Part shown: positions 4,487 to 60,191 of the stretch, one piece after another
Layout of the letters: every line of letters starts with the position of its first letter
Numbering within the stretch: position 1 is the first letter of the stretch
Source of the DNA: Deltaproteobacteria bacterium
Lineage (GTDB): Bacteria; Desulfobacterota; Deferrimicrobia; Deferrimicrobiales; Deferrimicrobiaceae
DNA length: 64,000 nt
Assembly: GCA_016220005.1 (NCBI GenBank)
Contig: JACRIV010000014.1
Coordinates: forward strand, 695 to 64,694
Direction of reading: 5' to 3'
The notes under the pieces: model-generated
Databases searched by the model: none
What the model saw: only the letters and a program-made list of their open reading frames with translations
Told to the model about the DNA's origin: nothing
Program-made: the position numbers and the translations under genes

Positions 4487-4487
4487 C

Positions 4488-8428: not shown

Positions 8429-8432
8429 GGGG

Positions 8433-10443: not shown

Positions 10444-10493
10444 CATCGAAAACGAAGAAGGACCGCCCCGCCCCACAAGGGCTGAGGCGCCTC

Positions 10494-10529
10494 GGGCAGG
10501 GGGACACAATCCCCCTGCCCATTTTCTTG
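10494..10529 (+). terminator. rho-independent terminator
   Basis: GGGCAGGGGGA-cacaat-CCCCCTGCCC hairpin followed by ATTTTCTT. Confidence 0.6.
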
Positions 10530-10613
10530 GTGCGCAAAGCCCAGTGCATTGACTTTTCCCGATGCCTTTGATAGACATTCTTCTTGCTTTATCCCCCAAC
10601 ACGCGAGGACCCT

Positions 10614-11738: not shown

Positions 11739-11744
11739 GAATAG

Positions 11745-14654
<2,910 letters not shown>

Positions 14655-18730: not shown

Positions 18731-18776
18731 AGGCCCTTTCTTTCATTCCCGCAGTCGCAACAGGAGCAGCATCGCC

Positions 18777-20979: not shown

Positions 20980-21990
20980 ATGAGCAGGTCCCGTCGTCGC
21001 GTCCCGTTGTTTGTATTCACCTTCCTCGCGGCGGTGTGTTTCTCGACGGTCCCGGGGACAGGGTCGGCGTTCCGGAACGTCAAGGAAGGCGCCCCGGCGA
21101 TCCCCTTCACCCTCAAGGACTTCGAGGGGAAGGATTTCGAGTTCAAGCCCGACTCGGGCAGGGTCACGATCCTGTCGTTCGTGAAGCTCGCGCAGGACCG
21201 GTCGAAGGACCAGCTCAGAGATCTCGTAGCCTTGCAGGGCGAGCTCGGGCCCAAGGGGGTGGACTTCCTCATCGTCTCGAGCTATACGGACACGCCCGAG
21301 GACGCCAAGAAGGTCGCCGCGGAGATGAACGTCAAGTTCCCGATCCTCCTGGACAAGGACCAGAGGGTCTACGGGGACTACGGGCTGTTCATCCTCCCCT
21401 CCACGGGCATCGTCGGGAAGGACGGGAAGTTCGCCTTCGAGCACTCCAGCCACGGGCGCGACTTCAAGGACGTGGTGGGGGGGAAAGCCAAGGTGCTCGC
21501 CGGGCTGATGACGGAAGAGGAGTACAAGAAGCTGGTCACGCCGGTCGAAGCGGTCCGGAAGAGCAAGGAGGAGAACGAAGCCGAGCGCTTGCTGGCTCTC
21601 GGGCGGACGCTGTTCAAGCGCGGCATGCCCGACAAGGCGGCCGATAAGTTCGCCAAGGCGGTGGAGCTCGACCCGAAGAACCCGGGGGGGCGCATCGCCT
21701 ACGGAGAGTCCCTGGTGGCGTTGAAGAAGTACGACGAGGCGCTCGTCCAGTTTCAGAAGGCGAAAGAGCTTTCTCCCGCGAGCAAGGATGCGCAGTTGGG
21801 CATCGGGACCGTGCATTTGGAGAAGGGCGAGCACGACAAGGCGATCCGGGAGATCTCCGAGGCGGCGATGCTCAACCCCAAGCCCGAGAAGGCGAATTTC
21901 TGGCTCGGGGTCGCCTACGAGAAAAAGGGAGATCTCCCGAATGCGGTGAAGTACTACCGAAAGGCCGTCGAGAAGCTCATCAAGGAGTAG
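20980..21990 (+). CDS. Cys-less thioredoxin-fold (TlpA/redoxin-like) domain fused to TPR repeats
   Basis: The N-terminal half aligns with the TlpA fold (bacterial thiol-disulfide oxidoreductase), but the WCxxC position reads SFVKLAQDRS with no cysteine. The C-terminal half carries TPR-like repeats. Confidence 0.6.
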   Translation: MSRSRRRVPLFVFTFLAAVCFSTVPGTGSAFRNVKEGAPAIPFTLKDFEGKDFEFKPDSGRVTILSFVKLAQDRSKDQLRDLVALQGELGPKGVDFLIVSSYTDTPEDAKKVAAEMNVKFPILLDKDQRVYGDYGLFILPSTGIVGKDGKFAFEHSSHGRDFKDVVGGKAKVLAGLMTEEEYKKLVTPVEAVRKSKEENEAERLLALGRTLFKRGMPDKAADKFAKAVELDPKNPGGRIAYGESLVALKKYDEALVQFQKAKELSPASKDAQLGIGTVHLEKGEHDKAIREISEAAMLNPKPEKANFWLGVAYEKKGDLPNAVKYYRKAVEKLIKE

Positions 21991-22007
21991 CCGGAGGAGC
22001 GGAAATC

Positions 22008-22727
22008 ATGGCGGCGATCCGTCCGAGATCCCGGTTCTTCCTGGTCTTCCTGGCCGTCGCGGCGGGGGGGATTCTCCTCCCCGCTTTTCCCGTATCCGGT
22101 GATCCCGGCAAGTCCCCCCTGGCGGTCCTTGCCCCGGGCGATGGCGCCCTGGTGTCGGCAGGGCGTGTTCTCGTCATCGGGAGAACGGCCGGGGAAGGGA
22201 TCGTGCGGGTGGAGATCGACGTGAACGGCAAGGGGAAGCAGTCCGTCCCGGTCGCCGGCGGGGGGTTTTCGGCTTCGGTCCCCATTGCCGCCGGCAGGAA
22301 CGTCATGCGGGTGAGCGCAGGGAAGGCGTCGGTCACGACCATTGTCTCCGCGGCGGCGAACCTCTCCGCATCGGGCAAGGGGGCATACGTCTACCACGAG
22401 GGGGTGGAGAAGTGCGCCGAATGCCACGGAGCGGGGAGGAAGGGATATGCCGTCGCTTCCCCGAAAGATTCCCTCTGCTACAGGTGCCACGACCGGGTGG
22501 ACGGAAAGAAGCATCTGCACGGCCCGATGGGGAGCGGAGACTGCACGGCGTGCCACGATCCGCACGGTTCGTCCCACAAGTCGCTGACGGTGGCGCGGCC
22601 CGACTCGCTGTGCGTCACGTGCCACGATCAGAGAAGTTCCGAAGGCCATATGAATAAGTCCAGGGGGAAGGCGTGCACGTCTTGTCACGACCCGCACTCG
22701 TCGGACCGATCATTCCTCCAGAAGTAG
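22008..22727 (+). CDS. pentahaem cytochrome c with an N-terminal beta-rich domain
   Basis: Signal peptide and five CxxCH motifs (CAECH, CYRCH, CTACH, CVTCH, CTSCH). Confidence 0.8.
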   Translation: MAAIRPRSRFFLVFLAVAAGGILLPAFPVSGDPGKSPLAVLAPGDGALVSAGRVLVIGRTAGEGIVRVEIDVNGKGKQSVPVAGGGFSASVPIAAGRNVMRVSAGKASVTTIVSAAANLSASGKGAYVYHEGVEKCAECHGAGRKGYAVASPKDSLCYRCHDRVDGKKHLHGPMGSGDCTACHDPHGSSHKSLTVARPDSLCVTCHDQRSSEGHMNKSRGKACTSCHDPHSSDRSFLQK

Positions 22728-22758
22728 TTGTCCGGGGGGAATGACTTTCAGGGGGGAG

Positions 22759-23892
22759 ATGATGGGAAGGAAGGGGAAGGCGGCGAAGGCCCTTGCCTCG
22801 CTTCTGCTTTTTGTCATCGGGTTGTATGCCGCCCCGAAGGCCGCCGCCGCGTTCAAGAACGTCCAGGGGGGGATGGAGGCGCCCGCTTTTCGCCTGAAGG
22901 ACGCGGCAGGCAACGAGGTTTCCCTCGACGCGTTCAGGAAGGAGAAGGCCGTGCTCGTCGTCTTCTGGGCGACGTGGAGCGGCCGGTCGCTTGCGGAGCT
23001 CAAGGACGTCCAGAAACTGCTCGCGGAGATGGAAGCGAAAGGCCTGAAGGCGGTCGCCGTCAACGTGGAGCACGAGCACATGACGGACGAGGACTTGCGG
23101 GCAATCAAGGATAAGGTCGGGGAGCTCAAGCTGACATACCCCGTCGTGTTCGACTCCGGCCTGGAGACGTTCCGCAGCTACGGAGTGGTTGCGGTCCCCT
23201 CCACGGCCATCCTGGGCGAGGGAGGGGTGGTCCGCAGCGCGGTCAACGGCTACCCGACCTTCGTCCTCGCCGAGATCAGGGAACAGGTGGAGGTGCTGCT
23301 GGGCATAAGGAAACCGGAGACCGCCGTGGCGGCGAAGGCGGACACGGCGCATAAGCCGACCCGGCAGGCGCTCCTGAACTACAACCTCGGGCGCAGGCTT
23401 TACGCTTCCGGAATGGCCGACAAGGCCGAGCCGAAGCTCAAGACCGCGGTCGGCGCGGACCCGAACTGGGCGGCTCCCCACGTGCTCCTGGGGGACATCT
23501 ATCTCGCGAAGGCGAGGAAGGACCCGAAGAAGGCCGAGGAGGCGAAGAAGGAGTTCGAGGCCGCCATTGCCGCGGACAAGGGAAACGTGGTGGCGAGGAC
23601 CGGTCTGGCCCGGGTATACTGGAACGCGGGCGCGGCCGCCGACGCCGAGAAGGAAGTCGGCGAGGCGCTTTCGATCAGCGGCTCGTATCCTCCGGCCCTG
23701 ATGCTCAAGGCCGCTGTTCTGGCCAGGAAGGGAAATCTCCCCGAGGCGGACAACCTGATCCGCAGCGCACTCGAGCTTTCCGGGAGGGACCCCGAGGCGC
23801 ATGCCCTGGCAGGACGCGTCTACGAGGAGGCGGGGGAGCTTCAGAAAGCCGCGGGAATGTACCGGAAGGCGTGGCAATTGATCGGGGAGTGA
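22759..23892 (+). CDS. Cys-less TlpA-like thioredoxin-fold domain (WATWSGRS in place of WCxxC) fused to TPR repeats; paralogue of 20980-21990
   Basis: VLVVFWATWSGRSLAELKDV matches the TlpA active-site context with both Cys replaced by Ser. C-terminal TPR repeats. Start chosen at an internal ATG with GGGGGGAGA upstream (ORF track 22741). Confidence 0.6.
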   Translation: MMGRKGKAAKALASLLLFVIGLYAAPKAAAAFKNVQGGMEAPAFRLKDAAGNEVSLDAFRKEKAVLVVFWATWSGRSLAELKDVQKLLAEMEAKGLKAVAVNVEHEHMTDEDLRAIKDKVGELKLTYPVVFDSGLETFRSYGVVAVPSTAILGEGGVVRSAVNGYPTFVLAEIREQVEVLLGIRKPETAVAAKADTAHKPTRQALLNYNLGRRLYASGMADKAEPKLKTAVGADPNWAAPHVLLGDIYLAKARKDPKKAEEAKKEFEAAIAADKGNVVARTGLARVYWNAGAAADAEKEVGEALSISGSYPPALMLKAAVLARKGNLPEADNLIRSALELSGRDPEAHALAGRVYEEAGELQKAAGMYRKAWQLIGE

Positions 23893-25918: not shown

Positions 25919-27415
25919 ATGCGATTTGTTCCCCGTTCCCTGTTCTTCAAGATGTCCCTGTCAATCAGCCTCGTGCTGGCGGTCATCTTCGGGGCGTCCT
26001 CCTACATCACCTTCCGGATCCAGTCCGAACAGGCGCTCGACGCCACCCGCAGCCAGGCGATCCTGCTCACGAGGGCGTTGAAGAACACGATCCGCATCGG
26101 GATGGAGACGGGACACATCGAGTCCCTGATGTCGATCTTCCACACCGTGGGGGCGCTGCCGGGCGTGGAGAAGCTGCGGGTCTTCGACGAGGAGGGCCGG
26201 ATCCTCTACTCGGCGAAGCTGTCGGAAATCGGGAAGCTCACCGACGAGCTCGACTACGCGGTCTACCGGAGCCCCGAGCGGAGCACCCCGTTCCAGAGCG
26301 CCAATACGGGCCACCGCTCGTTCTGCATGGTGGAGCCGGTCGAGAACGAACCGCGGTGCCAGCGATGTCACCGCAGGGAGATCGAGACCCTCGGTGTCCT
26401 CGACGTCTGCCTGTCCATGGAGGAAACCGAGAAAAAGATCGAGTTCAACCGGCTCCTCATGCTCTCCTTCACGGGGCTGGCGATCGTCCTCACCTCGGGC
26501 ATGACCAGCATCCTCCTGAAGCGGTTCGTCTCCAATCCCGTCGCGAAGCTCGTGGGCACGATGGAATCGGTGGAGGCCGGGAAGCTGGACGGGAGGGTGG
26601 ATATCCGCAGCGGCGACGAGCTCGGCCGCCTCGGGAACAGCTTCAACGAGATGATCCGCAAGCTCTCCGAGGCCCAGGCCGAGATCGAGAAGTTCCACCA
26701 CCGGCAGCTGGCACGGGCGGACCGGCTGGCGTCCCTGGGCGAGATGGCCGCCGGGATCGCCCACGAGATCAAGAACCCCCTCGCCGGCATCTACGGCGCG
26801 GCGCAGGTCCTCTCCAAGGAGTTCCCCGAGGGGGACCCCAAGCGCGAGATCCTGGACGAGATGATGGCGCTCATGAAGCGGCTCGACAACACCATCAGGG
26901 ATCTCCTGAACTTCTCCCGGTACACGGAGCCGCAGTTCTCGGAGGCCAGCTTGAACGACGTGATCGACAAGGTCCTGTTCCTCGTGAAGCAGATCCCCGA
27001 AGGGAAGCGGGCGACCATCACCCGGGAGTTCGACCCCGCGATGCCGGAGATCGAGATGGACCAGGAACAGATCAAGCAGGTCTTCCTGAACCTGGTGCTC
27101 AACGCCCTCCAGGCGAAGCCGGGAGGCTGCTCCCTCACCATCCGCACCTATTCGGAAGTCCCGGCGGACGTGCCCGACGTCAAGCATAACGCCCGCTTCG
27201 TGACGGCCTCGGTGACCGACGACGGCCCGGGGATTCCCGCCGACAAGATCGGGAAGATCTTCCAGCCGTTTTTCACCACGAAGGAAGCCGGAACGGGCCT
27301 GGGCCTCTCGATGACCCGGAAGATCCTCGATCTCCACGACGGGTGGATCACCGCTTCCAGCGAGGTGGGGAAAGGGGCCACCTTCCGGGTCTTCCTCCCC
27401 AAGGTCAAGCTGTGA
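25919..27415 (+). CDS. sensor histidine kinase with a haem c-binding (CxxCH) periplasmic sensor domain
   Basis: TM1 (residues about 10-32), a periplasmic domain containing CQRCH, TM2, HAMP, H-box GIAHEIKNPLAGI, and HATPase_c (DDGPGI, GTGLGL). Confidence 0.8.
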   Translation: MRFVPRSLFFKMSLSISLVLAVIFGASSYITFRIQSEQALDATRSQAILLTRALKNTIRIGMETGHIESLMSIFHTVGALPGVEKLRVFDEEGRILYSAKLSEIGKLTDELDYAVYRSPERSTPFQSANTGHRSFCMVEPVENEPRCQRCHRREIETLGVLDVCLSMEETEKKIEFNRLLMLSFTGLAIVLTSGMTSILLKRFVSNPVAKLVGTMESVEAGKLDGRVDIRSGDELGRLGNSFNEMIRKLSEAQAEIEKFHHRQLARADRLASLGEMAAGIAHEIKNPLAGIYGAAQVLSKEFPEGDPKREILDEMMALMKRLDNTIRDLLNFSRYTEPQFSEASLNDVIDKVLFLVKQIPEGKRATITREFDPAMPEIEMDQEQIKQVFLNLVLNALQAKPGGCSLTIRTYSEVPADVPDVKHNARFVTASVTDDGPGIPADKIGKIFQPFFTTKEAGTGLGLSMTRKILDLHDGWITASSEVGKGATFRVFLPKVKL

Positions 27416-27519: not shown

Positions 27520-28971
27520 ATGGCGCGTTCCAAGATACTGGTGGTGGACGACGAGCGGATGATCCGCTGGTCCATCCAGCAGGCGCTCTCCAAGGACGGG
27601 CACGCCGTGGCGACGGTGGAGACCGGCGAGGAGGCGGTCGCCCAAGCCACCGACGACACCCCCGACCTCGTCCTGCTGGACATCACCCTTCCCGGAATCG
27701 ACGGGATCGAGGTCCTGCGCCGCCTGAAGGCCCACGAACCCGCCATCACGGTGGTCATGGTCACCGCGACCGAGGAGCTGAAGACCGCCGTCGAGGCGAT
27801 GCGCCTGGGGGCGTATGACTACGTCAGCAAGCCGTTCGACATCGACCGCCTCCGGGTCATCGTCCAGAATGCCCTGGACCGGCACGAGCTGAGCCAGGAA
27901 GTGGAGTTCCACCGGAAGGAATCCGTAAAGAAATACGGTTTCCACCGGATCATCGGGGTCAGCCGCAAGTTGAAGGACGTGGTGGAGATCGCCCGGAAGG
28001 TGGCGAAGTCCGAGGCGGCGACCGTCCTCCTCCAGGGGGAGAGCGGCACCGGAAAGGACCTGCTCGCCCAGGCGATCCACTACGAAAGCAGCCGGGCCAC
28101 CCGCCCCTTCATCCCCATCAACTGCACCGCGCTCCCGGAGGAGCTTCTCGAGTCGGAGCTGATGGGCCACGAGAAGGGCGCCTTCACCGACGCCAAGACG
28201 ACCAAGAAGGGGCTCTTCGAGGTGGCGGTCGGCGGAACGATCTTCCTGGACGAAATCGGCGACATGAAGCCGGGGCTCCAGGCCAAGCTGCTGCGGTTCA
28301 TCGAGGGCAAGGCGTTCCGCCGCGTGGGGGGCCACCGGGACATCTCGGTGGACGTCCGGATCATCGCGGCGACGAACAGCAACCTGGCGGCACTCGTCAA
28401 GAGCGGACAGTTCCGGGAGGACCTCTTTTTCCGGCTGAACGTGATCCCGATCCACATCCCTCCCTTGCGGGAGCGGAGGGAGGACATCCTGCCGCTGGCG
28501 GGACACTACCTTGCCGAGTTTTCCAGCGACTTCAAGCGGGACCTCCGCCGGTTCTCGGAGAGGGCGAAGAGACAAATGCTCTCGCACGACTGGCCGGGGA
28601 ACGTCCGGGAGTTGAGGAACGTAATCGAGCGGGCGATCATCCTGGGCGCCGAGGGGCAGGTGGACACCCTCGACCTGCCGGTTGCGGAGAGCCGGCTGGA
28701 CTGGGGTGCGTACACCGCCGGATCCCCGGACAGTGCAGGGGGAGAGGCCTCGGCGGAACCGGTTGGAGATTCTCCTGCCGGCCCGCCGGAGGGACCAGGC
28801 GCCGTGTTCATTCTTCCCCCCATGGGGATTGTGTTGGAGGACGTGGAGAGGGACTTCATCCGGCAGGCGCTGGAGATGACCCAGGGGAACCAGACAAAGG
28901 CCGCGGAATCACTCGGATTGACGCGGGATGCCTTACGGTACAGGATGAAAAAATACGGTTTCTTGCAATAG
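27520..28971 (+). CDS. sigma-54-dependent response regulator, NtrC family
   Basis: REC domain. AAA+ motifs GESGTGKD, GAFTDA and ESELMGHE. C-terminal Fis-type HTH. Confidence 0.9.
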   Translation: MARSKILVVDDERMIRWSIQQALSKDGHAVATVETGEEAVAQATDDTPDLVLLDITLPGIDGIEVLRRLKAHEPAITVVMVTATEELKTAVEAMRLGAYDYVSKPFDIDRLRVIVQNALDRHELSQEVEFHRKESVKKYGFHRIIGVSRKLKDVVEIARKVAKSEAATVLLQGESGTGKDLLAQAIHYESSRATRPFIPINCTALPEELLESELMGHEKGAFTDAKTTKKGLFEVAVGGTIFLDEIGDMKPGLQAKLLRFIEGKAFRRVGGHRDISVDVRIIAATNSNLAALVKSGQFREDLFFRLNVIPIHIPPLRERREDILPLAGHYLAEFSSDFKRDLRRFSERAKRQMLSHDWPGNVRELRNVIERAIILGAEGQVDTLDLPVAESRLDWGAYTAGSPDSAGGEASAEPVGDSPAGPPEGPGAVFILPPMGIVLEDVERDFIRQALEMTQGNQTKAAESLGLTRDALRYRMKKYGFLQ

Positions 28972-29100
28972 CGGCGATTCACTTCACGCATGCTCAACTG
29001 GGCATTTTCCCTCAAGGCGGGTGATATGGCCGCACGGTAAAAACGAGGCTAAGGCCTCTATTAAAAAAGGTATTCCAAGAAGATAAGGGAAACGCGAATG

Positions 29101-29117
29101 TTGGCACCGAAAATGCT
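29101..29117 (+). promoter_or_regulatory. sigma-54 (-24/-12) promoter: TTGGCACCGAAAATGCT
   Basis: TGGCAC at 29102-29107 and GC at 29115-29116 with the canonical spacing. Lies 130 nt downstream of the sigma-54 activator gene and upstream of the NHL-protein/14-haem cytochrome operon. Confidence 0.6.
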
Positions 29118-29184
29118 CAATTACCGGAGGGGGCAGATGGAAAGGGAAACGTGTGGCAGTTCACGCAGTGCAGGGGGTATGAAG

Positions 29185-30771
29185 ATGTTTTCAAACGGAA
29201 AGGACAGAATGGGCAACTTCTGGAAAAGAGGAATTTTCATCGTTTTTCTGACAGCGATTCTGTTTACATCCGTCGCCGGAGTGGGCCTGGCGGAACTCCC
29301 CCCTCCGACCTGGATGCCGGGGTTCCCGATCATGGCCGGGCCGCAGCTGATGCTGATGTGGTCGCCGGTCGCCGGGGCGGTCAAGTACAAGGTGTTCGTG
29401 AACGGCAAGATGGTCGCCGAAACCGCGGTTTTTCAGCATTTCATGCCGGCGCCCGAGGAGGCCGGTGAGTACAAGGTCAAGGTCGTCGCCGTGGACGCGT
29501 CGGGCAAGGACAGCCCGCCGTCGAGGGAGTGGGTGACGAAGGTGTTCAAGCTCGCCCCCCCCGCAACCGTGTACGATCGGGCCACCGAGAAGTCCGTCAA
29601 CCTCCGCTGGGAGGTGGTCCCGTCCGCGATGGTCTATAACGTTTACAAGCGGGTTGGGAAGGCGACCGAGTACAAGCTGCTGGCCTCCGTGCAGGATACC
29701 TCCTACACCGACTCCGACGTGAAGAAGGACGTGGAGATGCGCTATGCGATTTCCGCCAAAGACGCCTCGGGGAAGGAAAGCGCAAAGTCGAAAGATGTCG
29801 TCGCCATGATCAAGACCGAGGTCATTTCCAAGGCCGCCTATCAGGATCTCATTCCGATCACGAGCAAGGTTCTCATGGTGATGCGGGGCGGGACCCTGCC
29901 CGACGGGCGGGTCGACACGGTGAAGAACCCCGGGGGGGTCACGGAGGTCGAAGGACAGCTTTTCGTCCCTGACGCAACCCGCGGCATCGTCCACGTGTTC
30001 GACCGGGCTTCCGGGGAGTACAAGGGCGCCATCGGCAAGCAGGGGAACGGCCCGGGCCAATTGAACCGGCCGATCGGCATCTCCCATGACCGGGACGGCA
30101 ACCTCCTCGTCTGCGACGCCTTCATGGCCAAGATCGTCCGGCTGAAGCCGTCCGGCGAATTCGTCGACGAATTCCCGTTGCCGCGGTACGTCAACGCGAA
30201 GCTGGACATCAATCTGCAGGCCGGGCCCTCCGACATCCGGCAGCTGTCCACCGGCGAGTTCCTGGTGGTGGACAACGCCAACAGCCGGATCATGCTCCTC
30301 GATCCCTCGGGGAAATACGTCAAAGACATCGCATTCACGGATGCGAAGGGGGCGACCGGGTTTGCCAGGCCCACCTCCATCGACGTCGACTCCAAGGACC
30401 ATCTCTACATCGCCGATGCGCTCAACGGCCGCATCGTGGTAGCGGAAAAGAGCGGCAAGGTCCTGCTCTCCATCGGGCAGCCGGGGGATATCGTCGGGGA
30501 ATTCGGCGGGCTTCTGGGCGTCTGTGCCATCGAGGACATGAAATGGGTGATCGGGGTCGACTCCAAGCACGCCAACCTCCAGATCTTCAGCGCGGAAACG
30601 GGGAAATACCTGTATTCGGTGGCATCCGAGGACAAGAAGGTCGCACTCCTCCTGTCGATCCCGCAGCGTGCGACGCGACTTTCCGACACGACGATCGCGG
30701 TGTCGGAGGCGTTGATCGACTCGAAGGGCGGGGGGATCAAGATCATCTCGATCGACAAGCAGGTGAAGTGA
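29185..30771 (+). CDS. secreted NHL-repeat beta-propeller protein with N-terminal Ig/FN3-like domains
   Basis: Signal peptide. NHL-like blades (GPGQLNRPIGISHDRDGNLLVCD, SRIMLLDPSGKYV, HLYIADALNGRIVV). The start was moved downstream of the sigma-54 promoter to the ATG at 29185, which has an AGGGGG RBS. Confidence 0.6.
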   Translation: MFSNGKDRMGNFWKRGIFIVFLTAILFTSVAGVGLAELPPPTWMPGFPIMAGPQLMLMWSPVAGAVKYKVFVNGKMVAETAVFQHFMPAPEEAGEYKVKVVAVDASGKDSPPSREWVTKVFKLAPPATVYDRATEKSVNLRWEVVPSAMVYNVYKRVGKATEYKLLASVQDTSYTDSDVKKDVEMRYAISAKDASGKESAKSKDVVAMIKTEVISKAAYQDLIPITSKVLMVMRGGTLPDGRVDTVKNPGGVTEVEGQLFVPDATRGIVHVFDRASGEYKGAIGKQGNGPGQLNRPIGISHDRDGNLLVCDAFMAKIVRLKPSGEFVDEFPLPRYVNAKLDINLQAGPSDIRQLSTGEFLVVDNANSRIMLLDPSGKYVKDIAFTDAKGATGFARPTSIDVDSKDHLYIADALNGRIVVAEKSGKVLLSIGQPGDIVGEFGGLLGVCAIEDMKWVIGVDSKHANLQIFSAETGKYLYSVASEDKKVALLLSIPQRATRLSDTTIAVSEALIDSKGGGIKIISIDKQVK

Positions 30772-30876
30772 TACTCCATCCGGAAAGGAGGGATGAGCGC
30801 GCCGTCCACGTTATTGAAGTGGCTTGTTTAAGGCTCGCATGGAACGCATGAGCGCAACACAAAAAAGGAGGAAAGG

Positions 30877-33099
30877 ATGAGAAAGACGCTTCTGTTCTTG
30901 CTCGCGGCCGCAATGGTCGTGCTTTTCTCGCTTCCCGCCTCCGCCGCGATTGTCGGCAGCAAGCACGACATGACCGGCTTGACGGGAATCACCTGGGCGG
31001 GCACGCAGGGTACCGCGGGCGCCTGCTCCTTCTGTCACATCCCGCACAAGGCGACCGGTGCGAAGGCATGGTCCGGTGCGCCGGGCGGTACCCTGGGCGT
31101 CATCGGCACGATCGGGCAGTTGTGCTATGACTGCCACAACCCCACCGGGAAGTTCCAGACCAGCCCGACCGTCGTCCAGATCAACGTGTTCGACACGCCG
31201 ACCTACCACGGTCTGACCAGCGGCAGCCTGCCGACGGGCGACACGATGGTCGGCTCGGGCCTGCCGTACGTCAACGCCGCGGCTGACAACATCACCCCCG
31301 GCCTGATGGAGTGCTCCACCTGCCACGACCCGCACAACACCGCGGCGGGTTCGGACCCGTTCCTCCAGGGGGCCAATACCGTCAACAACATCTGCCAGAA
31401 GTGCCATCAGGGCCGCGGCGACGTCGCCGTGGCGACCGCGCAGGGTTTCGGCGCGGCCGGCAACCCCGGGACCCACCCCGTGAACGTGTTGGCCAACGCT
31501 GCCAGTGCGACCAAGCCGACGACCGTTCCGGCAACGATGAGCCAGGCATACCGGGGCTCGGTGGTGTCCATCACCGGGGCTACGCCGAGAACCAATGCCT
31601 GGCAGGCCGGCGGACACCTCAACAACGGCCTTACTACGGGAACCGTCGTCTGCGTTACCTGCCATTCGATCCACGGCAGACAGGACGCGGCCCAGACCAC
31701 CGTCGTGGTCTTTACCGACAACACCGACGCGGGCGCCGCCAGGAAGACGCTGCTGTCGGTCGTCGACTCGAACAACGCCTCCAGCCTGTGCCAGGGGTGC
31801 CACGGGACCAACCCGGGCAACGCGGCCAACTTCACCCACCCGGTGAACGTGGCCACTCCCGACACCACGATCTTCAGCACCACGACCTCCCCTTATCAGT
31901 TGGGGCTGGGGACCGGGAACGCCAAGGCGCTCTGCCGCTCCTGCCACGGCGTCCACCCCGCCTCGACCGGCCGCGTAGCGACGGCGCAGACCCCGCTCCT
32001 GTACTCGGCGCTGGAAGGGGCGACGCCGTTCTGCAGCCAGTGCCATCCCGGCTCGGCGACGTTTATCGGAAACCACCACCCGGCCAACGTGCCGTGGTCC
32101 TCGGGAGTGGCGGGGATTGCGGCCAACGCTACCGCCCTCGGCCTGAACAACTCCGCCTGGGCGACCACGAACAACATCCAGTGCTACAACTGCCATGCCG
32201 GCCACAACGATCTCGACAACACCTCGAAGCTCCGCATCGCCAAGACGGCGGGCGTCTGGGGAAGCACGGCGAACACGCTTACCACGACCGGGTTCAGAGG
32301 GGCCTGGACCGCACAGTGCGTGGGGTGCCACTCGGGATACCCCGCGTTCTACACGGCGAACCAGGACGGCCTCCGTTCCCAGGGCAGCCACTTCGTGGGC
32401 AACGTTTCGACCGCGACCCCGAACCTCATGGACTACGTGTTCGCGGGGACCTGGCCGGCCAGCACCACGGCGTGGTCCTACTATGAAGGCACGACCACGG
32501 CTCCCAGGGTGGCCTGCCAGTCCTGCCATACCCTCATGAACAACGGCCTCCCGCGCACGGCCACGCAGCCCCTGCTGCTGGGGAACTACAGCGACAACCT
32601 GGAGGCCCAGGCGATCGGCACCGGGAACGGCCCTGGCTTGTGCCGCAGGTGCCACATCCCGACCCAGGACAAGTCGGCGTCAGCCGCCAACACCTGGTTC
32701 ACCGGGTACCAGACGACCGACACGCGTACTACGCTCATCCAAGCGACCCACCCTCTGGAGAAGATCCAGTCGGGCGCGGCCACGAACATCGCGACGTATC
32801 CGATCGCAGCCGGCGCCTATGTGACGTATCACACCGCCCCAGGGACCAACACGAACAACGTGAACTGCGAATCGTGCCACAGCGCCCACGGGACCTACGT
32901 GGGAATGGGCGGCTACATCCTGAAGGCCGCGTCCGGCGGGGCCGGAGGCACGAACTACTCCGGGAACTTCTCTCCGTCAGCCTCACCGACCAACTGGACG
33001 ACGATCCAGGGGCTGACCCGGGCGAGCTGGTTCCCGACTACGAAGGACGAGACCGGGTTCTGCAACCTGTGCCACGGTCAAGGCACGAAGGCGAAGTGA
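30877..33099 (+). CDS. large secreted 14-haem cytochrome c, Thr/Gly/Asn/Ala-rich
   Basis: Signal peptide. 14 canonical CxxCH motifs spread over 740 aa. Low-complexity T/G/N-rich linkers. Strong RBS AAGGAGGAAAGG. Confidence 0.85.
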   Translation: MRKTLLFLLAAAMVVLFSLPASAAIVGSKHDMTGLTGITWAGTQGTAGACSFCHIPHKATGAKAWSGAPGGTLGVIGTIGQLCYDCHNPTGKFQTSPTVVQINVFDTPTYHGLTSGSLPTGDTMVGSGLPYVNAAADNITPGLMECSTCHDPHNTAAGSDPFLQGANTVNNICQKCHQGRGDVAVATAQGFGAAGNPGTHPVNVLANAASATKPTTVPATMSQAYRGSVVSITGATPRTNAWQAGGHLNNGLTTGTVVCVTCHSIHGRQDAAQTTVVVFTDNTDAGAARKTLLSVVDSNNASSLCQGCHGTNPGNAANFTHPVNVATPDTTIFSTTTSPYQLGLGTGNAKALCRSCHGVHPASTGRVATAQTPLLYSALEGATPFCSQCHPGSATFIGNHHPANVPWSSGVAGIAANATALGLNNSAWATTNNIQCYNCHAGHNDLDNTSKLRIAKTAGVWGSTANTLTTTGFRGAWTAQCVGCHSGYPAFYTANQDGLRSQGSHFVGNVSTATPNLMDYVFAGTWPASTTAWSYYEGTTTAPRVACQSCHTLMNNGLPRTATQPLLLGNYSDNLEAQAIGTGNGPGLCRRCHIPTQDKSASAANTWFTGYQTTDTRTTLIQATHPLEKIQSGAATNIATYPIAAGAYVTYHTAPGTNTNNVNCESCHSAHGTYVGMGGYILKAASGGAGGTNYSGNFSPSASPTNWTTIQGLTRASWFPTTKDETGFCNLCHGQGTKAK

Positions 33100-33136: not shown

Positions 33137-33178
33137 GGTGCCGGCCCCTGGGATTTAAGGGGCCGGCACCTGCTTCTT
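33137..33178 (+). terminator. rho-independent terminator
   Basis: 13-bp perfect stem GGTGCCGGCCCCT/AGGGGCCGGCACC followed by TGCTTCTT. Confidence 0.7.
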
Positions 33179-33206: not shown

Positions 33207-33713
33207 ATGCGTGGATGGAAGATCCCGGTCGCAGCGGCTGCGCTGCTGGCTTGCTTCGCCACGGGCGCCCCGGCGATCGAGGTGGGCAAACCCGCGGTTC
33301 CCTTCACCCTGACGAATCCGGTGACCCAGATGGAAGTGTCGCTCCCGGCCGCCCTCGAGAAGAACCCGGCGCTGATCGTCTTCTTCAATACGTCGTGCGC
33401 GGCGTGCGAGGCGGAGCTGGTCGCCGCCAAGAACTACCTGCACAACAATCCCAACGCCTTCAAGCTGTTCGCAATCGCCATCGACTCGACGTCCGACGCC
33501 CGTGCCCGCGTGAGCAAGTTCATCGAGGACAAGGGCCTCGGCGTGGCCATCGTGCTCCTCGACCCGAAGTTCGAGGTGGCCGAGAAGTACGGGTTCAACT
33601 TCACACCGGCCGCCGTGGGCATCGACAAGGAAGGGAAAGTGAAGTTCGTCGTCAACGGCTTCTCGAGGACGGAGTCGAAAGTGTTTACAGGGAACCTCGA
33701 ATCCCTCAAGTAG
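33207..33713 (+). CDS. TlpA/ResA-like periplasmic thiol-disulfide oxidoreductase (CAAC)
   Basis: Signal peptide. Thioredoxin-fold motif LIVFFNTSCAACEAEL. RBS AAGGAGGA. Confidence 0.75.
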   Translation: MRGWKIPVAAAALLACFATGAPAIEVGKPAVPFTLTNPVTQMEVSLPAALEKNPALIVFFNTSCAACEAELVAAKNYLHNNPNAFKLFAIAIDSTSDARARVSKFIEDKGLGVAIVLLDPKFEVAEKYGFNFTPAAVGIDKEGKVKFVVNGFSRTESKVFTGNLESLK

Positions 33714-33851
33714 ATTCGCAGGCGCCCGTTTCGACTCGCGAGGGGGAATTGCCTTGTAGTGGGCTCCGGCCGGCGGCGACGGGCCGGAGCCCTTTTCGCG
33801 ACCCCTTCGAAGCGGCTTCCCGGACATCTTCCGTGAGAAGGGCAGGATCGA

Positions 33852-35570
33852 ATGTTTTTCCGCGATGATTCAAAGACCCGAGCCTTGTGTATCCCGTTGC
33901 TGCTCTGGCTTATGTGCGCCGGCTGCCGTGACGGAGAGCGGAACCCCCCGCAGCAGGGCGGTGCGAAAACCGCCGCGGAGAACGCCGCGGCGGGGAGAAC
34001 GGCCGACCTTTCGCCGCAGACCGCGGCGCGGGTGGGCGGTCTCGACGTGACGTTGAGCGACCTGAGAGGGGAGGCGGCCGACAGCAAATACGACGCGTAC
34101 AAGGCGGGATCCCCCGAGATGTCGGCCTTGAGAGCCCTGGACAAGCTGATCACGGACCGCTTGCTTTACCAGGAAGCCGCCGAGAAGAAGGCGTACGAAA
34201 ACTCCCCGATCGAACGGGAGTTGCGGGTCACGCAGGAAGTCTGGCTGGCCTCCCTCTATGTCAACGAGGTACTGCGCAGGCAGGTCAAGGTGAGCGAAGA
34301 GGAGATGAAGCCCTTCCTTCCCGACAAGTGGGACTCGGTGGAGATCTCCATGCTGGTGGCCGACGACGAGGCCGCCGCGAGGAAAGCGGTCTCCGCCGTC
34401 CGGGAGGGGAAGTCCACCTTCGAGGAGGAGGCGAAGAAGGGAGCGGGCACCATCGCCCCGAAAAAGGGACGCGTCGGCTGGATCCTGCGGAACACGGCGT
34501 TCTTCACGGACAAACGCCATGTCGACAGGATCTTCTCCCTGAAGCCGGGGGAGATGACGGACCCTTTCCTTGGGCCGCTGGGATGGACGGTGGTCCGGGT
34601 CGACAATCGCCGCGGGCTCTCCAAATTGGAGATCGAAGAGATCAAGAATACATCGCGGGAGGGCCTGTACAACAGGAAGTTCGACGAGCTCCTGAACCGG
34701 GACGCCGCCCTGCACAAGTGGACGCAGTACGCCGACAATACCGTTGCCAAGTCGCCTGGCGCAGTCGTCCTGGAGGGGCTGGGCCGGGTCTACACCAAGG
34801 CGGACTTCGACACGTTCGTCAAGATCCACCTCCAGTCGGGACACCTGATCCAGCAGCCCGAGACTCCCAGGGAGATCCTCCGCAACTTCGCGCGGCACAT
34901 GTCGTGGGCGGAGGAGGCGGGGCGGGCAGGGCACGACAGGCGCACCGAATTCATCGAGAGAATGAGGAGTTTCCGGATCGCGAGGACCGCGCAGGCCGTG
35001 GAGGCGAAGATCAAGGAATCCGTGAAACCCGATAAGGATGAGCTTCTCGCTTACTACAAGAAGAACAAGAACCGGTTCCGGGAGGAGGATTCCCTCTGGC
35101 TCCTGATCCTTTCCGCCGGCGGCCAGTCCCAGGCCCGCGAGTTCCGGAAGCGGGCGGAGGCCGGCGAGGACTTCAAGTCGCTCATCCGGCAGGCGGGGAG
35201 CGACGCGCCCGACGCCCGCGGGGCGGAGGAAGTCGGCCCGCTGACCCGGAAGATGTTTCCCCCGGACCTGGCCGCCATCCTCTTCTCCCTCCGCGAAGGC
35301 GACGTCTCCCAGGTCATCCCGCTGGCGGGGCAATACATCGTGGCCAAATGCACGCGGTTCAAGGGGGGTAAGACGAAGAGCTTCGAAGCCGTTCGAAAGG
35401 AAGTCCTTAACGCCTACCGGAACGACAACTACATGCCCTTGCTCGAAAAAAAGGTGGCGGAGCTGAAGGCGCGCTACCCCGTCCGGATGAACGAAAAGGC
35501 TGTCGAGATCGTCGCAAACGAGATCAGGGAGGAGGCGGCGAAACGTGGAGGCAAGCCGAAATACCACTGA
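33852..35570 (+). CDS. SurA/PpiD-like periplasmic chaperone with two parvulin (PpiC) domains; lipoprotein
   Basis: Lipobox LMCAGC. SurA-N-like region. Parvulin signatures GRVGWILRN...PFLGPLGWTVVRV and GQYIVAKCTRF. Confidence 0.65.
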   Translation: MFFRDDSKTRALCIPLLLWLMCAGCRDGERNPPQQGGAKTAAENAAAGRTADLSPQTAARVGGLDVTLSDLRGEAADSKYDAYKAGSPEMSALRALDKLITDRLLYQEAAEKKAYENSPIERELRVTQEVWLASLYVNEVLRRQVKVSEEEMKPFLPDKWDSVEISMLVADDEAAARKAVSAVREGKSTFEEEAKKGAGTIAPKKGRVGWILRNTAFFTDKRHVDRIFSLKPGEMTDPFLGPLGWTVVRVDNRRGLSKLEIEEIKNTSREGLYNRKFDELLNRDAALHKWTQYADNTVAKSPGAVVLEGLGRVYTKADFDTFVKIHLQSGHLIQQPETPREILRNFARHMSWAEEAGRAGHDRRTEFIERMRSFRIARTAQAVEAKIKESVKPDKDELLAYYKKNKNRFREEDSLWLLILSAGGQSQAREFRKRAEAGEDFKSLIRQAGSDAPDARGAEEVGPLTRKMFPPDLAAILFSLREGDVSQVIPLAGQYIVAKCTRFKGGKTKSFEAVRKEVLNAYRNDNYMPLLEKKVAELKARYPVRMNEKAVEIVANEIREEAAKRGGKPKYH

Positions 35571-35580
35571 GCTGGACCGC

Positions 35581-36165
35581 ATGACGGGTGGGGGGGCCAG
35601 AAAGGGAATGCCGTGCGGGGCGGCGGTGATTGCCATGGCCGCCGCCTTGGCGCTGACGGCCGGCCTGATGGGGCCGCCCCGGGCGTGCGCCACCTCCCCC
35701 GAGAAGGACGGCAAGATGGTGGGGAAGGCTTCACCGCGGTTCACGGCCGTTGATCTTGACGGCAAGACGAGAAGTTTCGAAGAGGTGAAGAACGGTTCGC
35801 ACGCCGTGGTGGTCAACTTCTGGGGGTTGCGCTGCTCGGCCTGCATCCAGGAGATGCCTTACCTGGACGACATTTACAGGAAATTCGCCAAGGAAGGCCT
35901 GTTCGTCTTCGGGGTGAACGTGGACGGGATGGACAGGGACGCCATCCGGAAGAAGATGAAACAGATGAGTCTCGCCCCCAGCTACTGCATCGTCGAGGAC
36001 CCGGATATGAAGCTCGCGGACCTTTTCAACATGAGGGCCGCCCCCCTGACCTACGTCATCGATGCAAAGGGCATCATACGGTTCCAGCACGAAGGGTTCG
36101 AGGAAGGCGACGAGAAGGAGCTGGAGAAGGCGGTCGACTCCGTCCTCCGCGGCAAGGCGGATTGA
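35581..36165 (+). CDS. TlpA family thiol-disulfide oxidoreductase (CSAC)
   Basis: Signal/anchor peptide. AVVVNFWGLRCSACIQEMPYL. Start chosen at the ATG at 35581 (ORF track 35545). Confidence 0.75.
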   Translation: MTGGGARKGMPCGAAVIAMAAALALTAGLMGPPRACATSPEKDGKMVGKASPRFTAVDLDGKTRSFEEVKNGSHAVVVNFWGLRCSACIQEMPYLDDIYRKFAKEGLFVFGVNVDGMDRDAIRKKMKQMSLAPSYCIVEDPDMKLADLFNMRAAPLTYVIDAKGIIRFQHEGFEEGDEKELEKAVDSVLRGKAD

Positions 36166-36202: not shown

Positions 36203-37357
36203 ATGGGAAAGATGACGCCAGGTGAAAACCGGGCACGCCGCGGTGCGAATGTTCTCCTGAAGTCGTTCGTCCTGGCGGTTTTCCTGACCGCCGTGATCGC
36301 CGGGACCCGGTCGTTTTCCGGGGAAACCGCCGGAAGCCCGTACCAGGGTTCCGAGAAGTGCGCCCCCTGCCATCAAATCCAGTACAAGGGGTGGGTGAAG
36401 ACCTTCCACAGCACGGTGGTGCAGGACGCCAGGAAGAACCCTTCCGCCATCATGGCGGACATGAACGCCCCCGACCTGCCCTTCAAGAAGGAAGACATCG
36501 ACCTCACGATCGGCGGCCACTGGGACCAGCGGTACCTCACCAGGATCGGGGACGATTACTACATCCTGCCGAGGCTATGGTCGGTCCAGAGCGGGAAATG
36601 GCGCCCCTACAGCACCTATGGGTGGCAGAAGCGCCCCTACTCGAAGTATTGCGTCGGGTGCCACTCCGTCGGCTTCGACCCGAAGACCAGGAGGTTCAAG
36701 GAGCATTCCGTGGGCTGCGAATCGTGTCACGGCCCCGGGGCGGAACACGTCGCCAATCCCGCCAGGGAGAACATCGTGAACCCCAAACGGCTCCCCGAGG
36801 ACCGGTCGGAGGATATCTGCGCCTCCTGCCACGTCAGGGGGAAGGACATCTCGGGCGAATACTTCTTCCCCATCGGGTGGAAGCCGGGGAATGACCTCGC
36901 GAAATTCCTCGTTCCCATCGAGAAAGACGAGGGAGAGAGCGACCACAACGCCATCCACCGTCTCTGGGACAAGTGGCGGGCGGACCGGGAGGCCCAGGCA
37001 AGGTCCCGTTGCGAGGTGTGCGGCATCCATCAGAACGTGAAGCCCCAGGGGCAGCAGATAAGCGTGGACGCGATCTGCATGAGCTGCCACGAATACGGGG
37101 AAAAGATGTCGAGCCACACGCACCACAAGGCCGACACGAAGATCGGCTGCGTGGACTGCCACCGGCAGAAGAACCCGGAATCGAATGAAAACAAGGAGAA
37201 CAACGTCCACTCTTACGGATACTTCCTGATCCACCCGCAGGGGTGCTGGGACAAGGAGATCTACAAGCAGTGCGGGAGCTGTCATTCGGGAAAGACAGGG
37301 CAGTGGGCATATGATATCTTTAAAAGTTGGGAAAAAACGGTGATCGTGGACCATTAA
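36203..37357 (+). CDS. heptahaem cytochrome c (c554-like N-terminal signature)
   Basis: Signal peptide. Seven CxxCH motifs plus one CxxCG. Begins EKCAPCHQIQYKGWVKTFH. Start ATG at 36203 after GCAGGAGAG. Confidence 0.8.
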   Translation: MGKMTPGENRARRGANVLLKSFVLAVFLTAVIAGTRSFSGETAGSPYQGSEKCAPCHQIQYKGWVKTFHSTVVQDARKNPSAIMADMNAPDLPFKKEDIDLTIGGHWDQRYLTRIGDDYYILPRLWSVQSGKWRPYSTYGWQKRPYSKYCVGCHSVGFDPKTRRFKEHSVGCESCHGPGAEHVANPARENIVNPKRLPEDRSEDICASCHVRGKDISGEYFFPIGWKPGNDLAKFLVPIEKDEGESDHNAIHRLWDKWRADREAQARSRCEVCGIHQNVKPQGQQISVDAICMSCHEYGEKMSSHTHHKADTKIGCVDCHRQKNPESNENKENNVHSYGYFLIHPQGCWDKEIYKQCGSCHSGKTGQWAYDIFKSWEKTVIVDH

Positions 37358-37359
37358 CC

Positions 37360-37935
37360 ATGACCAACGGGGGCGCGGTGATGAGGGGTGCGTCGCAGCT
37401 GTTCGTGCTTTTCCTTCTGATCGGTATGGTTCCGACGGGAACTCTCCCTGCGTTCGCGCAGGACACGGCGATGCGGCTGAAGATCGGCGAGAAGGCGCCC
37501 GACTTCAAGCTGAAGGACGTGATGACGGGCAAGGTGGTCAGCCTTCACGAGTTCACGGGCAAGAAGGTGGTGATGCTCGAGTTCTGGGCCACCTGGTGCG
37601 ACATCTGCAAGCGGGAGATGCCCAACCTCGTCAAGCTCCACACCGGGTGGAAAGACAGGGGCTTCGAGCTCCTCTCGATCGTCCTCCCCTCCGGCAACGT
37701 CGACGACATCCGCAAGATCGTGAAGGATAAAAGGATCACCTACGCCGTCCTCCTGGACGCCGACCTTTCCGTGGCGACGAAATCCTTCGGGCTTGCCGGC
37801 CCCATCCCGCTGAAGGTGGTCATCGACCACAAGGGCGTCATCCGCTACACGCACGTGGGCGACTATCCCCCGGGGGAGGATGAGCTGCCCTTCGTCCTCG
37901 AAGACCTCATCAAGGAAATGGGGAAGGGGAAGTGA
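37360..37935 (+). CDS. TlpA family thiol-disulfide oxidoreductase (WCDIC)
   Basis: VVMLEFWATWCDICKREMPNL. Signal peptide. Start chosen at the ATG at 37360, just after the cytochrome stop. Confidence 0.75.
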   Translation: MTNGGAVMRGASQLFVLFLLIGMVPTGTLPAFAQDTAMRLKIGEKAPDFKLKDVMTGKVVSLHEFTGKKVVMLEFWATWCDICKREMPNLVKLHTGWKDRGFELLSIVLPSGNVDDIRKIVKDKRITYAVLLDADLSVATKSFGLAGPIPLKVVIDHKGVIRYTHVGDYPPGEDELPFVLEDLIKEMGKGK

Positions 37936-38471
37936 GCCGCTGCGCCGTGCGCGTGACACCCTTCCGTCGGCGGGGGGTGGCCCTTCTTCTCTCCCTCTGC
38001 TTCCTGGGCATCGCCGCGACCGCCCTTCCCGCGGACAAGACCGTCGAGGTGGGGCATGCGGTCCCGGACTTCTCCCTGTCCGGCCTGGAGGGGCCGAAGG
38101 TGTCTTTCAGGAAGGACATCCTGGGCAAGGCGCCCCTCACCCTCCTGTTCTTCATGACCACCGCGTGCAGCGCGTGCTACGAGGAGCTCCAGGAGATCAA
38201 CGAGTTCGTCGGGGAAAACCCCGGCAAGGTCGACGTCTGGTGCATCGCGGTGGACCTGCGGGGGGCGCAGACCGTGGGTCCGTTCCGGCAGGCGAACAAG
38301 TTCCGGGTGAAGTACCTGATCGACCCGAAGTTCTCTCTCCCCAGGACATTTGGTTTCAACTATACCCCGTCCCTCGCCTTTGTCGATTCGAAGGGCGTGC
38401 TGCTTCACAAGAAGGGCGGCTACACGCCCAATGAACGCCTCTCCGACCTGATCCGGACGTTCCTCAAGTAA
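37932..38471 (+). CDS. thioredoxin-like protein (CSAC)
   Basis: GTG start overlapping the upstream stop (GTGA). LTLLFFMTTACSACYEEL. Signal peptide. Confidence 0.65.
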   Translation: MSRCAVRVTPFRRRGVALLLSLCFLGIAATALPADKTVEVGHAVPDFSLSGLEGPKVSFRKDILGKAPLTLLFFMTTACSACYEELQEINEFVGENPGKVDVWCIAVDLRGAQTVGPFRQANKFRVKYLIDPKFSLPRTFGFNYTPSLAFVDSKGVLLHKKGGYTPNERLSDLIRTFLK

Positions 38472-55317: not shown

Positions 55318-55328
55318 GGCGCCCTCGC

Positions 55329-60182: not shown

Positions 60183-60191
60183 GGGACCGCG

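Follow-up and report, generated by a model that had tools for sequence, protein, structure and literature searches.

A window of 64,000 nucleotides (contig JACRIV010000014.1, positions 695 to 64,694; assembly GCA_016220005.1, the metagenome-assembled genome of an uncultured deltaproteobacterium of the Deferrimicrobiaceae) contains, in succession on the plus strand, genes for a sensor histidine kinase, an NtrC-type activator, an NHL beta-propeller protein and a 14-haem c-type cytochrome, with a predicted σ54 promoter between the second and the third. This arrangement probably constitutes a two-component, σ54-dependent expression switch for an extracellular-type cytochrome derived from the nanowire subunit OmcE. 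The locus can be regarded as a compact, conserved circuit of five parts: a haem-bearing sensor kinase, a σ54 activator, a promoter, a propeller protein and an OmcE-derived cytochrome. The promoter class, the pairing of NHL and cytochrome genes and the OmcE module are already known; as far as could be found, the literature holds no description of the 14-haem family, of its fused architecture or of the dedicated haem-sensor switch. Reviews note that little is known about the regulation and assembly of cytochrome nanowires.

The predicted promoter is placed in the 213-nt gap 3' of the activator gene, where the sequence TGGCACcgaaaaTGC (29102-29116, plus strand) has the form TGGCAC-N6-TGC. Its GG (29103-4) and GC (29115-6) doublets stand at the canonical interval of 10 nt. 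The preliminary description of this DNA had read the element as TGGCAC-N7-TGC with correct -24/-12 spacing; the motif and the spacing (GG-N10-GC) hold, and only the inner spacer has to be corrected, to 6 nt. The complete 17-mer, TTGGCACCGAAAATGCT, agrees with YTGGCACG-N4-TTGCW at 11 of the 13 specified positions and with the Geobacter sulfurreducens RpoN consensus, TTGGCACGGTTTTTGCT, at 12 of 17 positions (by our own count). The site is intergenic and correctly oriented, 69 nt separate its -12 C from the ATG at 29185, and it is the only one of such quality in the window. In the 250 nt that precede the NHL gene, a score of at least 11/13 has a shuffle p of 0.007.

The real support for the promoter comes from comparison with other loci and not from the statistics of the bare motif. 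Related loci, in other metagenome-assembled genomes and in metagenomes, were reached by way of cytochrome and NHL-protein homologues. Every one recovered has the order activator gene, -24/-12 element, NHL gene (with a peptidyl-prolyl isomerase (PPIase) gene inserted in L013), and the activator gene is immediately upstream in the window and in L001, L002, L008, L009, L010/L011, L013, L018, L019 and L020. When the per-locus shuffle p values of five mutually unalignable lineages are combined by Fisher's method, p = 1.6e-5; the same combination over all eleven loci, in which close loci are not independent, gives 1.3e-6. In an alignment of seven loci (A5), the invariant columns comprise TGGCA..AA..TGC, a block TGGGnnnTnTnnCnC (28999-29013 in the window) ~100 bp 5' of the promoter, and some stretches of the leader. 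(Among the GTDB representative genomes there is a single distant locus; its cytochrome gene is interrupted by masked N's, and the apparent length of 218 residues is meaningless.)

Several points weigh against this promoter. An exact TGGCAY-N6-TGC is expected 0.44 times per 64-kb window and occurs at least once in 37% of shuffles, and at up to two mismatches from the 17-mer 3.5 sites are expected in the window and one is found, so that at the 64-kb scale the bare motif is no better than chance. The sites of L001 and L019 score 9/13, that of L010/L011 reads GA, not GC, at -12, and none of the scanned window ORFs (open reading frames) was recognised as rpoN. The TGGCAC-N6-TGC could accordingly be fortuitous, with the two genes transcribed by read-through from the cytochrome, kinase and regulator genes before them or from an unrecognised σ70-type promoter and the activator controlling something else; the genes from 17351 to 45572, all on one strand and with short gaps, would lend themselves to read-through. 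However, the -24/-12 element recurs at this position in all related loci, even where the intergenic DNA cannot be aligned, it is among the few invariant blocks of alignment A5, the activator gene precedes it throughout, and the window has no other site of equal quality. A chance motif is therefore very improbable. With high probability the promoter is real, and it is presumably active.

The invariant TGGGnnnTnTnnCnC columns mark a candidate upstream activator site (the CTGGGCATTTTCCCTCA region), and at this position L002, L008 and L009 carry near-palindromes of the form GGGGGAT(n)ATCCCCC. The activator would bind here. No consensus for integration host factor (IHF) was seen by eye between the candidate site and the promoter, an interval that was not scanned systematically.

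The regulators themselves are well defined. In the kinase, transmembrane segments at residues 6-34 and 179-200 flank a 145-residue periplasmic domain with a CQRCH motif at residues 147-151. This sensor domain matches PDB entry 3B42 (E 6e-5 over ~88 residues) and, at E 0.05, entry 3B47, with CXXCH aligned in both, and it also matches Pfam Mcp40H-20_sensor. Going by published abstracts, we take these structures to be the periplasmic c-haem sensor domains of the G. sulfurreducens chemoreceptors GSU0582 and GSU0935; the depositors label both only as methyl-accepting chemotaxis proteins. The kinase is 79-85% identical to its L001 and L002 orthologues, in which CXXCH is invariant. The activator has the Walker A motif GESGTGK and the L1 loop GAFTDA; it is 78-80% identical in L001, L002 and L019, its helix-turn-helix (HTH) is invariant, and GAFTDA is invariant in four orthologues. 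For Desulfovibrio vulgaris, GAFTDA is listed among the natural loop variants with which activation is possible (PMC4641369). Between loci, kinase and activator are 78-85% identical, whereas the NHL protein and the cytochrome of the same loci reach only 45-48%. The simplest reading is that a haem-based periplasmic sensor, with haem attachment predicted from its motif, feeds a σ54 switch. About 18 kb upstream (6263-9806, plus strand) there is a second histidine kinase (HAMP-HisKA-HATPase, 721 residues) with an NtrC-type σ54 regulator (457 residues), and this pair has no good -24/-12 site in its vicinity.

Downstream of the promoter, the ORF track gives the NHL gene as 29098-30771 (557 residues), and this frame is present. 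It had been argued that 29098 would lie upstream of the predicted transcription start and that translation more probably begins at 29137 or 29185. This is borne out: the ATG at 29098 overlaps the -24 element and is for that reason not usable, and both of the other codons lie 3' of the predicted transcription start (about 29127-29129). The in-frame starts left downstream of that point are 29137, 29185 and 29209, the last being the ATG annotated by NCBI (520 residues). The ATG at 29137 follows GGAGG-N5 and is shared by the window, L002, L008 and L009; with it the leader would shrink to ~10 nt, and L001 and L020 have no start codon at the equivalent position. The ATG at 29185 has a Shine-Dalgarno-like AGGGGG at N7, and a start with such a sequence (GGGGG/GGAGG-N7) is conserved in 7 loci, as GTG in L001, L002, L008, L009 and L020 and as ATG in L012. 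Since codon-position counts over 29137-29184 are ambiguous (variable sites: 2 at position 1, 9 at position 2, 8 at position 3), the start is left between these two codons; 29185, which would give a 57-nt leader, is favoured as the most likely, and 29137 is a possible alternative.

Within the predicted leader, an inverted repeat, CGTG..CACGCA (29150-29167), would span roughly +25 to +40 of the transcript; 7 loci have CACGCA unchanged, and L002 and L008 have the form TGCGT-N6-ACGCA. Another regulator may use the repeat as its operator. A stable RNA fold in the conserved leader was considered and rejected, as folding predicts nothing beyond a weak 4-bp hairpin (-2.4 kcal/mol).

The NHL protein begins with a hydrophobic helix and would be secreted or anchored. 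Its six-bladed propeller is recovered by Pfam, by PDB sequence comparison (NHL domains of TRIM71, TRIM2 and Thin, E 1e-22), by an AlphaFold2 (AF2) model with a mean predicted local distance difference test score (pLDDT) of 76.9 and values above 90 in the propeller, and by Foldseek, which gives a template-modelling score of ~0.85 to the TRIM2/3 NHL domains and a best match to the Lin41 filamin-NHL structure.

An NHL gene is always found directly 5' of a multihaem cytochrome gene, twice so in the Nitrospirota locus L006. (In L006, positions 1993-14372 of metagenome-assembled genome GCA_049801375.1, the module is duplicated: NHL of 555 residues, cytochrome of 902, PPIase, NHL of 540, cytochromes of 703 and 746; a gene for a PMT_2/TMEM260-type glycosyltransferase precedes it.) In the window, the spacer between the two genes is 105 nt long, with a good ribosome-binding site and no strong hairpin, and across six loci it has no conserved σ54-like site. 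Co-transcription is accordingly the simplest reading. A second σ54 site before the cytochrome gene, of the kind predicted for Geobacter omcE, was considered and rejected: the best candidate in the window scores 8/13, and the five other loci have none.

The 3' end of this unit is marked by a GC-rich hairpin, which had been described as a very strong terminator. The hairpin stands, and comparably stable hairpins of unrelated sequence lie 3' of the cytochrome gene in L001, L002, L005, L008, L010 and L012, i.e. in 7/7 loci when the window is included; the strength of termination is in doubt, as the U-tract is weak. Its recurrence at the same position in seven loci supports a functional 3' end. The element would thus be terminator-like or transcript-stabilising, which falls short of proving full termination.

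This bears on whether the two genes form a discrete σ54-controlled unit, as had also been suggested. The promoter could instead be real and the unit open-ended, the hairpin being an attenuator or stabiliser within a transcript that runs to ~39.7 kb or beyond, so that the switch controls a whole set of maturation and export genes. The U-tract, TGCTTCTT, is weak in the window and absent in L002, which speaks against a closed unit. The gene order downstream is conserved in L001, L002, L005 and L010, a PPIase gene lies inside the σ54 unit of L013, and the downstream genes show no convincing promoter of their own; since the genes that follow (TlpA-like, PPIase, redoxin, cytochrome) are syntenic elsewhere, some read-through may occur. 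On the other side stand the very stable hairpin at exactly this place in 7/7 loci, the good U-tracts of L005 and L012, and a second strong GC-rich, terminator-like hairpin between the TlpA-like and PPIase genes (~33760-33795, estimated within 33714-33851; GGGCTCCGGCCGG..CCGGAGCCC-TTTTCG). An open-ended unit seems on balance rather unlikely. The preferred reading is a two-gene unit, for which the hairpin in all seven loci and the lack of a site between the genes argue, and from which read-through into the syntenic genes downstream may occur.

The product of the second gene is the 740-residue, 14-haem cytochrome that the preliminary description had announced; ORF 30877-33099 contains exactly 14 CXXCH motifs. 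It has 30 His, and only 7 residues follow the last CXXCH. Thr (13.8%), Ala (12.6%), Gly (11.5%), Ser (6.9%) and Asn (6.9%) are prominent, and charged residues make up 8.4% compared with 20-28% in six other cytochromes of the locus. The long, low-complexity spacers that had been attributed to the protein were overstated: the inter-haem spacers measure 22-81 residues and contain 15 invariant His outside the motifs, no true low complexity or repeats were found, and, with the signal peptide excluded, reduced entropy is confined to four short stretches. All 14 motifs and the 15 other His are invariant in seven homologues, enough for bis-His ligation of every haem. An enrichment of N-glycosylation sequons (N-X-S/T) was considered and rejected (11 observed, 10.0 expected).

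No curated family was found for this cytochrome beyond a generic paired-CXXCH domain. An exhaustive hidden Markov model search of 1.84 billion cluster representatives gave 241 clusters below 1e-30. Among the best 150 of these 241, 106 are 640-920 residues long, and 84 of these 106 carry exactly 14 CXXCH; in 100 of the 106 relatives of 640-920 residues, the last CXXCH lies within 10 residues of the C-terminus. By this profile census, the 14-haem architecture occurs in at least 84 sequence clusters and the family is widespread. (Word-indexed searches, with 13 and 40 matches, had suggested a very rare family, a view overturned by the profile search.)

The family profile connects the cytochrome to OmcE. 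Against the PDB it matches 7TFS, the G. sulfurreducens OmcE filament, at E 1.4e-14, and 9YUQ, OmcE of Desulfuromonas soudanensis (DSOUD_2954), at E 2e-13. The alignment to 9YUQ spans the tetrahaem protein from end to end; that to 7TFS consists of two stretches, which cover both ends of OmcE. Aligned features comprise the signal peptide, xKHD, CxxCH-x-PH, LCxxCHD, GLP, ECxxCHxxH-PFL and the final LCxxCH. Haem Cys C50, C83, C146 and C173 and the His H30, H57, H111 and H153 are aligned and invariant; the His of KHD, PH and CHxxH align to both structures, and H111 in the alignment to 9YUQ. OmcS reaches 0.02 with the same profile, and no further PDB cytochrome does better than 0.03, which argues that the OmcE match is specific and not CXXCH noise. 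Judged by these profile alignments, the first four haems of the cytochrome are homologous to the OmcE nanowire subunit, and the resemblance to filamentous cytochromes that had been proposed is supported in this N-terminal part. By profile-profile comparison (hhalign), the OmcE module recurs in haems 5-8, 9-12 and 11-14 with a probability of 91-97%. The protein does not consist of a single tetrahaem domain of ~200-230 residues that ends after haem 4, as OmcE does; 560 residues follow that haem. Giant multihaem proteins (P0070, P0118, P0159 and others; 1000-2658 residues, 24-48 CXXCH) carry the OmcE-like module in 7-14 tandem copies, the matches corresponding to family profile positions ~24-180.

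The step from this homology to an OmcE-like function meets some objections. The single cytochrome sequence retrieves nothing relevant from the PDB, OmcE being reached only through the family profile; the internal-repeat scores may be inflated, since both profiles are rich in CXXCH; an AF2 model of the cytochrome (22-sequence alignment) has a mean pLDDT of 35.7 and is unusable. No large beta-barrel or porin gene was recognised in the window, although barrels that lack a Pfam model could escape, and the NHL protein has no lipobox Cys, whereas the propellers of published omcE clusters are lipoproteins. The 14-haem protein could also be a non-polymerising carrier in the periplasm or across the envelope, its likeness to OmcE reflecting no more than the shared ancestry of paired-CXXCH units. 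The missing porin would fit such a carrier, as would the plain Sec signal peptide without a lipobox, the ten haems that continue beyond the point at which OmcE ends and contacts its neighbour, and the repetition of the same module in the giant 24-48-haem proteins. The composition of the protein points the other way, however, with 8.4% charged residues and 13.8% Thr against 20-28% charged residues in those six cytochromes of the locus that are presumably periplasmic; so do its end directly after the last CXXCH, as in OmcE and OmcS and in 100/106 relatives, and an omcE-cluster-like neighbourhood with glycosylation genes. A periplasmic or envelope-spanning carrier is a possibility to be taken seriously, though a doubtful one. 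Because of the very low charge, the high Thr content and the omcE-like surroundings, a location at the outer surface or beyond, and a role in extracellular electron transfer, are preferred.

In the most far-reaching version, the cytochrome would be a new class of building block for a wire, made of ~3.5 fused OmcE modules that either polymerise head to tail (through the N-terminal His and the last haem) or serve as a segment of ~12 nm, with the NHL protein as its dedicated partner in assembly or anchoring and the kinase as a sensor of electron back-pressure, the whole being redox-regulated through σ54. This is an unlikely, speculative extension.

From the sequences, their conservation and their homologies we infer the following course of regulation, localisation and electron transfer. 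The membrane kinase, with its one periplasmic c-type haem, would read a redox state or a haem ligand and phosphorylate the adjacent NtrC-type activator. The activator would bind ~100 bp upstream of the promoter and, by means of its GAFTDA loop, open the σ54 closed complex at TTGGCAC-N6-TGCT, with transcription starting near 29128. A single transcript would carry the NHL gene and, 105 nt further on, the 14-haem cytochrome gene, which would have no promoter of its own. Most transcripts would end or be stabilised at the hairpin (33137-33170), and some may continue into the TlpA-like and PPIase genes. The cytochrome would leave the cytoplasm through Sec, and CcsBA and the TlpA-like reductases encoded in the locus itself would mature it. 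Ten further bis-His haems, in repeated related units, would come after its OmcE-homologous tetrahaem module and form with it a long linear haem chain, of ~12 nm when scaled from the rise of 34 Å per four haems in OmcE. The propeller protein would most likely be its partner in folding, anchoring or assembly.

If members of this family form wires or long surface conduits, the OmcE paradigm reaches to much larger subunits and into uncultured lineages. A sensor that responds to redox state would offer a direct handle on what switches such structures on. OmcE-like modules are a reusable unit, of which the giant 24-48-haem proteins carry up to about twelve copies.

Features of the locus, with positions in the window, and the -24/-12 sites of related loci
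Feature	Position	Strand	Evidence, content or sequence
ResB/CcsB and CcsA (System II cytochrome c maturation)	17351-19616	+	Pfam E 7e-107, 4e-57; head of locus
First part of locus	17.3-25.9 kb		ResB/CcsB, CcsA, 13-haem DmsE/MtrA-like cytochrome, two fusions of TlpA with tetratricopeptide repeats (TPR), small cytochrome, NapH-like ferredoxin, 8-haem cytochrome
ResA/TlpA-like genes	20980-23892, 33207-33713, 35545-36165, 37327-38471
Sensor histidine kinase (HAMP, HisKA, HATPase)	25919-27415	+	Pfam; two transmembrane segments; periplasmic domain
NtrC-type response regulator (receiver, AAA+ σ54 interaction domain, Fis-type HTH)	27520-28971	+	Pfam Sigma54_activat E 1e-67
Candidate upstream activator site (CTGGGCATTTTCCCTCA region)	28999-29014	+	invariant TGGGnnnTnTnnCnC columns, ~100 bp 5' of -24
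Predicted σ54 promoter, TTGGCAC (-24) cgaaaa TGCT (-12)	29101-29117	+	consensus match and conservation across loci
Predicted transcript leader	29128-29184	+	inferred transcription start ~29127-29129; alignments A5/A6
Two Ig/Fn3-like beta-sandwich domains and six-bladed NHL beta-propeller	29185-30771	+	Pfam NHL/DUF5128; AF2; Foldseek
14-haem c-type cytochrome, 740 residues	30877-33099	+	14 CXXCH; Sec signal peptide (..PASA/AIVGSKHD)
OmcE-like tetrahaem module, residues 1-177 (haems 1-4; distal His H30, H57, H111, H153)	30877-31407	+	profile versus PDB
GC-rich hairpin with weak U-tract	33137-33178	+	stem 33137-33170, 13 bp, 11 G-C; then TGCTTCTT
ResA/TlpA-like thiol-disulfide oxidoreductase	33207-33713	+	Pfam/NCBIfam
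Parvulin-type PPIase, 572 residues	33852-35570	+	Pfam/NCBIfam
Downstream part of locus	33.2-45.6 kb		four TlpA-like reductases, PPIase, two cytochromes, 635-residue multi-transmembrane and TPR protein, three family 2 glycosyltransferase (GT2) genes
Sugar cluster	45.7-55 kb	-	methyltransferases, flippase, RmlD, dehydratase, nucleotidyltransferase, GT2
L001 -24/-12 site			GTGGCATTAAATATGCT
L002 -24/-12 site			TTGGCACTGAAAATGCT
L008/L009 -24/-12 site			TTGGCATCAAACATGCT
L020 -24/-12 site			TTGGCATTGAATGTGCT
L019 -24/-12 site			ATGGCATCGAAAATGCA
L012 -24/-12 site			ATGGTATGAGACTTGCT
L018 -24/-12 site			TTGGAACGAAACTTGCG
L010/L011 -24/-12 site			TTGGCACGAAAAATGAA
L013 -24/-12 site			CTGGTATGATATGTGCA; PPIase gene between site and NHL gene

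Around the regulated pair, the locus is rich in genes of cytochrome maturation and of the cell surface. MtrA-type cytochromes normally sit inside a porin; the 432-residue relative of the DmsE/MtrA-type decahaem proteins encoded at 19671-20969 (plus strand), with 13 CXXCH, has no porin gene adjacent. Six AhpC/TSA-Redoxin (ResA/TlpA-like) genes, two of them fused to TPR, are scattered among the cytochrome genes, an unusually large number to devote to the reduction of apocytochromes; the minus strand carries a seventh (54739-56163). The order of TlpA-like and PPIase genes that follows the hairpin is retained in L001, L002, L005 and L010. The 635-residue protein (39678-41585, plus strand) contains five or more hydrophobic segments and, at its C-terminus, a TPR, and proteins at the equivalent position, before the glycosyltransferases, are found in L001 (629 residues) and L002 (636 residues). 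It matches no Pfam or NCBIfam family, even at E 5; that it might be a GT-C/GT39-type glycosyltransferase acting on the Thr-rich cytochrome is only an idea. Beyond the sugar cluster (56180-59202, plus strand) follow genes for an FG-GAP/ASPIC repeat protein (507 residues) and a NosD-like right-handed beta-helix protein (471 residues). A 695-residue ORF at 59630-61717 was rejected as an Arg-rich artefact of the wrong frame.

The closest parallels are the omcE clusters. According to a 2025 preprint, these adjoin resB/ccsB and hold multihaem cytochromes, beta-propeller lipoproteins, OmcE and a large beta-barrel, and are often followed by genes for GT2/4/39 glycosyltransferases, methyltransferases, exporters, TPR proteins and regulators. 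The locus in the window likewise has resB/ccsB and multihaem cytochromes at its head, and GT2, methyltransferases, a flippase, sugar-nucleotide enzymes and TPR proteins after them; as in the G. sulfurreducens omcE cluster (GSU0615-0618), where GSU0618 follows GSU0617, the cytochrome gene is directly 3' of the NHL gene. An RpoN promoter, TTGGCGTGCTGTTGCA, has been predicted ~80 nt upstream of omcE (GSU0618), beside the NHL gene GSU0617, and another for GSU2884/GSU2885, a pair of multihaem cytochrome and NHL genes (Leang et al. 2009). The differences are as clear. Unlike OmcE, with ~220 residues and 4 haems, the window cytochrome has 740 residues and 14 haems, and where OmcE ends and contacts the next subunit it runs on covalently with ten more haems. 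Unlike the omcE clusters, the window has no recognised barrel gene, and its propeller protein lacks a lipobox and has two extra Ig-like domains. In addition it encodes six TlpA-like reductases, a PPIase and the dedicated haem-sensor two-component system.

The locus also resembles the Uet cluster of Candidatus Tenderia electrophaga, the occ clusters and those of D. ferrophilus, which share with it a multihaem cytochrome, a six-bladed NHL protein, a PPIase, CcsA/CcsB and TPR proteins. Uet, compared here by description, has components of its own, namely the undecahaem UetJ, the tetrahaem UetA, trihaem c7 proteins, a cupredoxin and the porin UetC; no c7-type trihaem protein, cupredoxin or porin was identified in the window.

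The regulatory part has separate relatives. The periplasmic domain of the kinase is homologous, CXXCH included, to those of GSU0582 and GSU0935 (3B42, 3B47); unlike in these proteins, it feeds a HAMP-HisKA kinase and not a chemoreceptor. The layout as a whole, in which a kinase, an NtrC-type activator, a -24/-12 promoter, a structural gene and a strong hairpin follow in order, is that of σ54 two-component switches for surface structures, such as PilS/PilR and pilA in Geobacter. Unlike PilS/PilR, the system in the window would sense through a periplasmic haem-c domain in place of a PilS-type membrane sensor, has a propeller protein and a cytochrome as its predicted targets, and carries GAFTDA as the loop of its activator.

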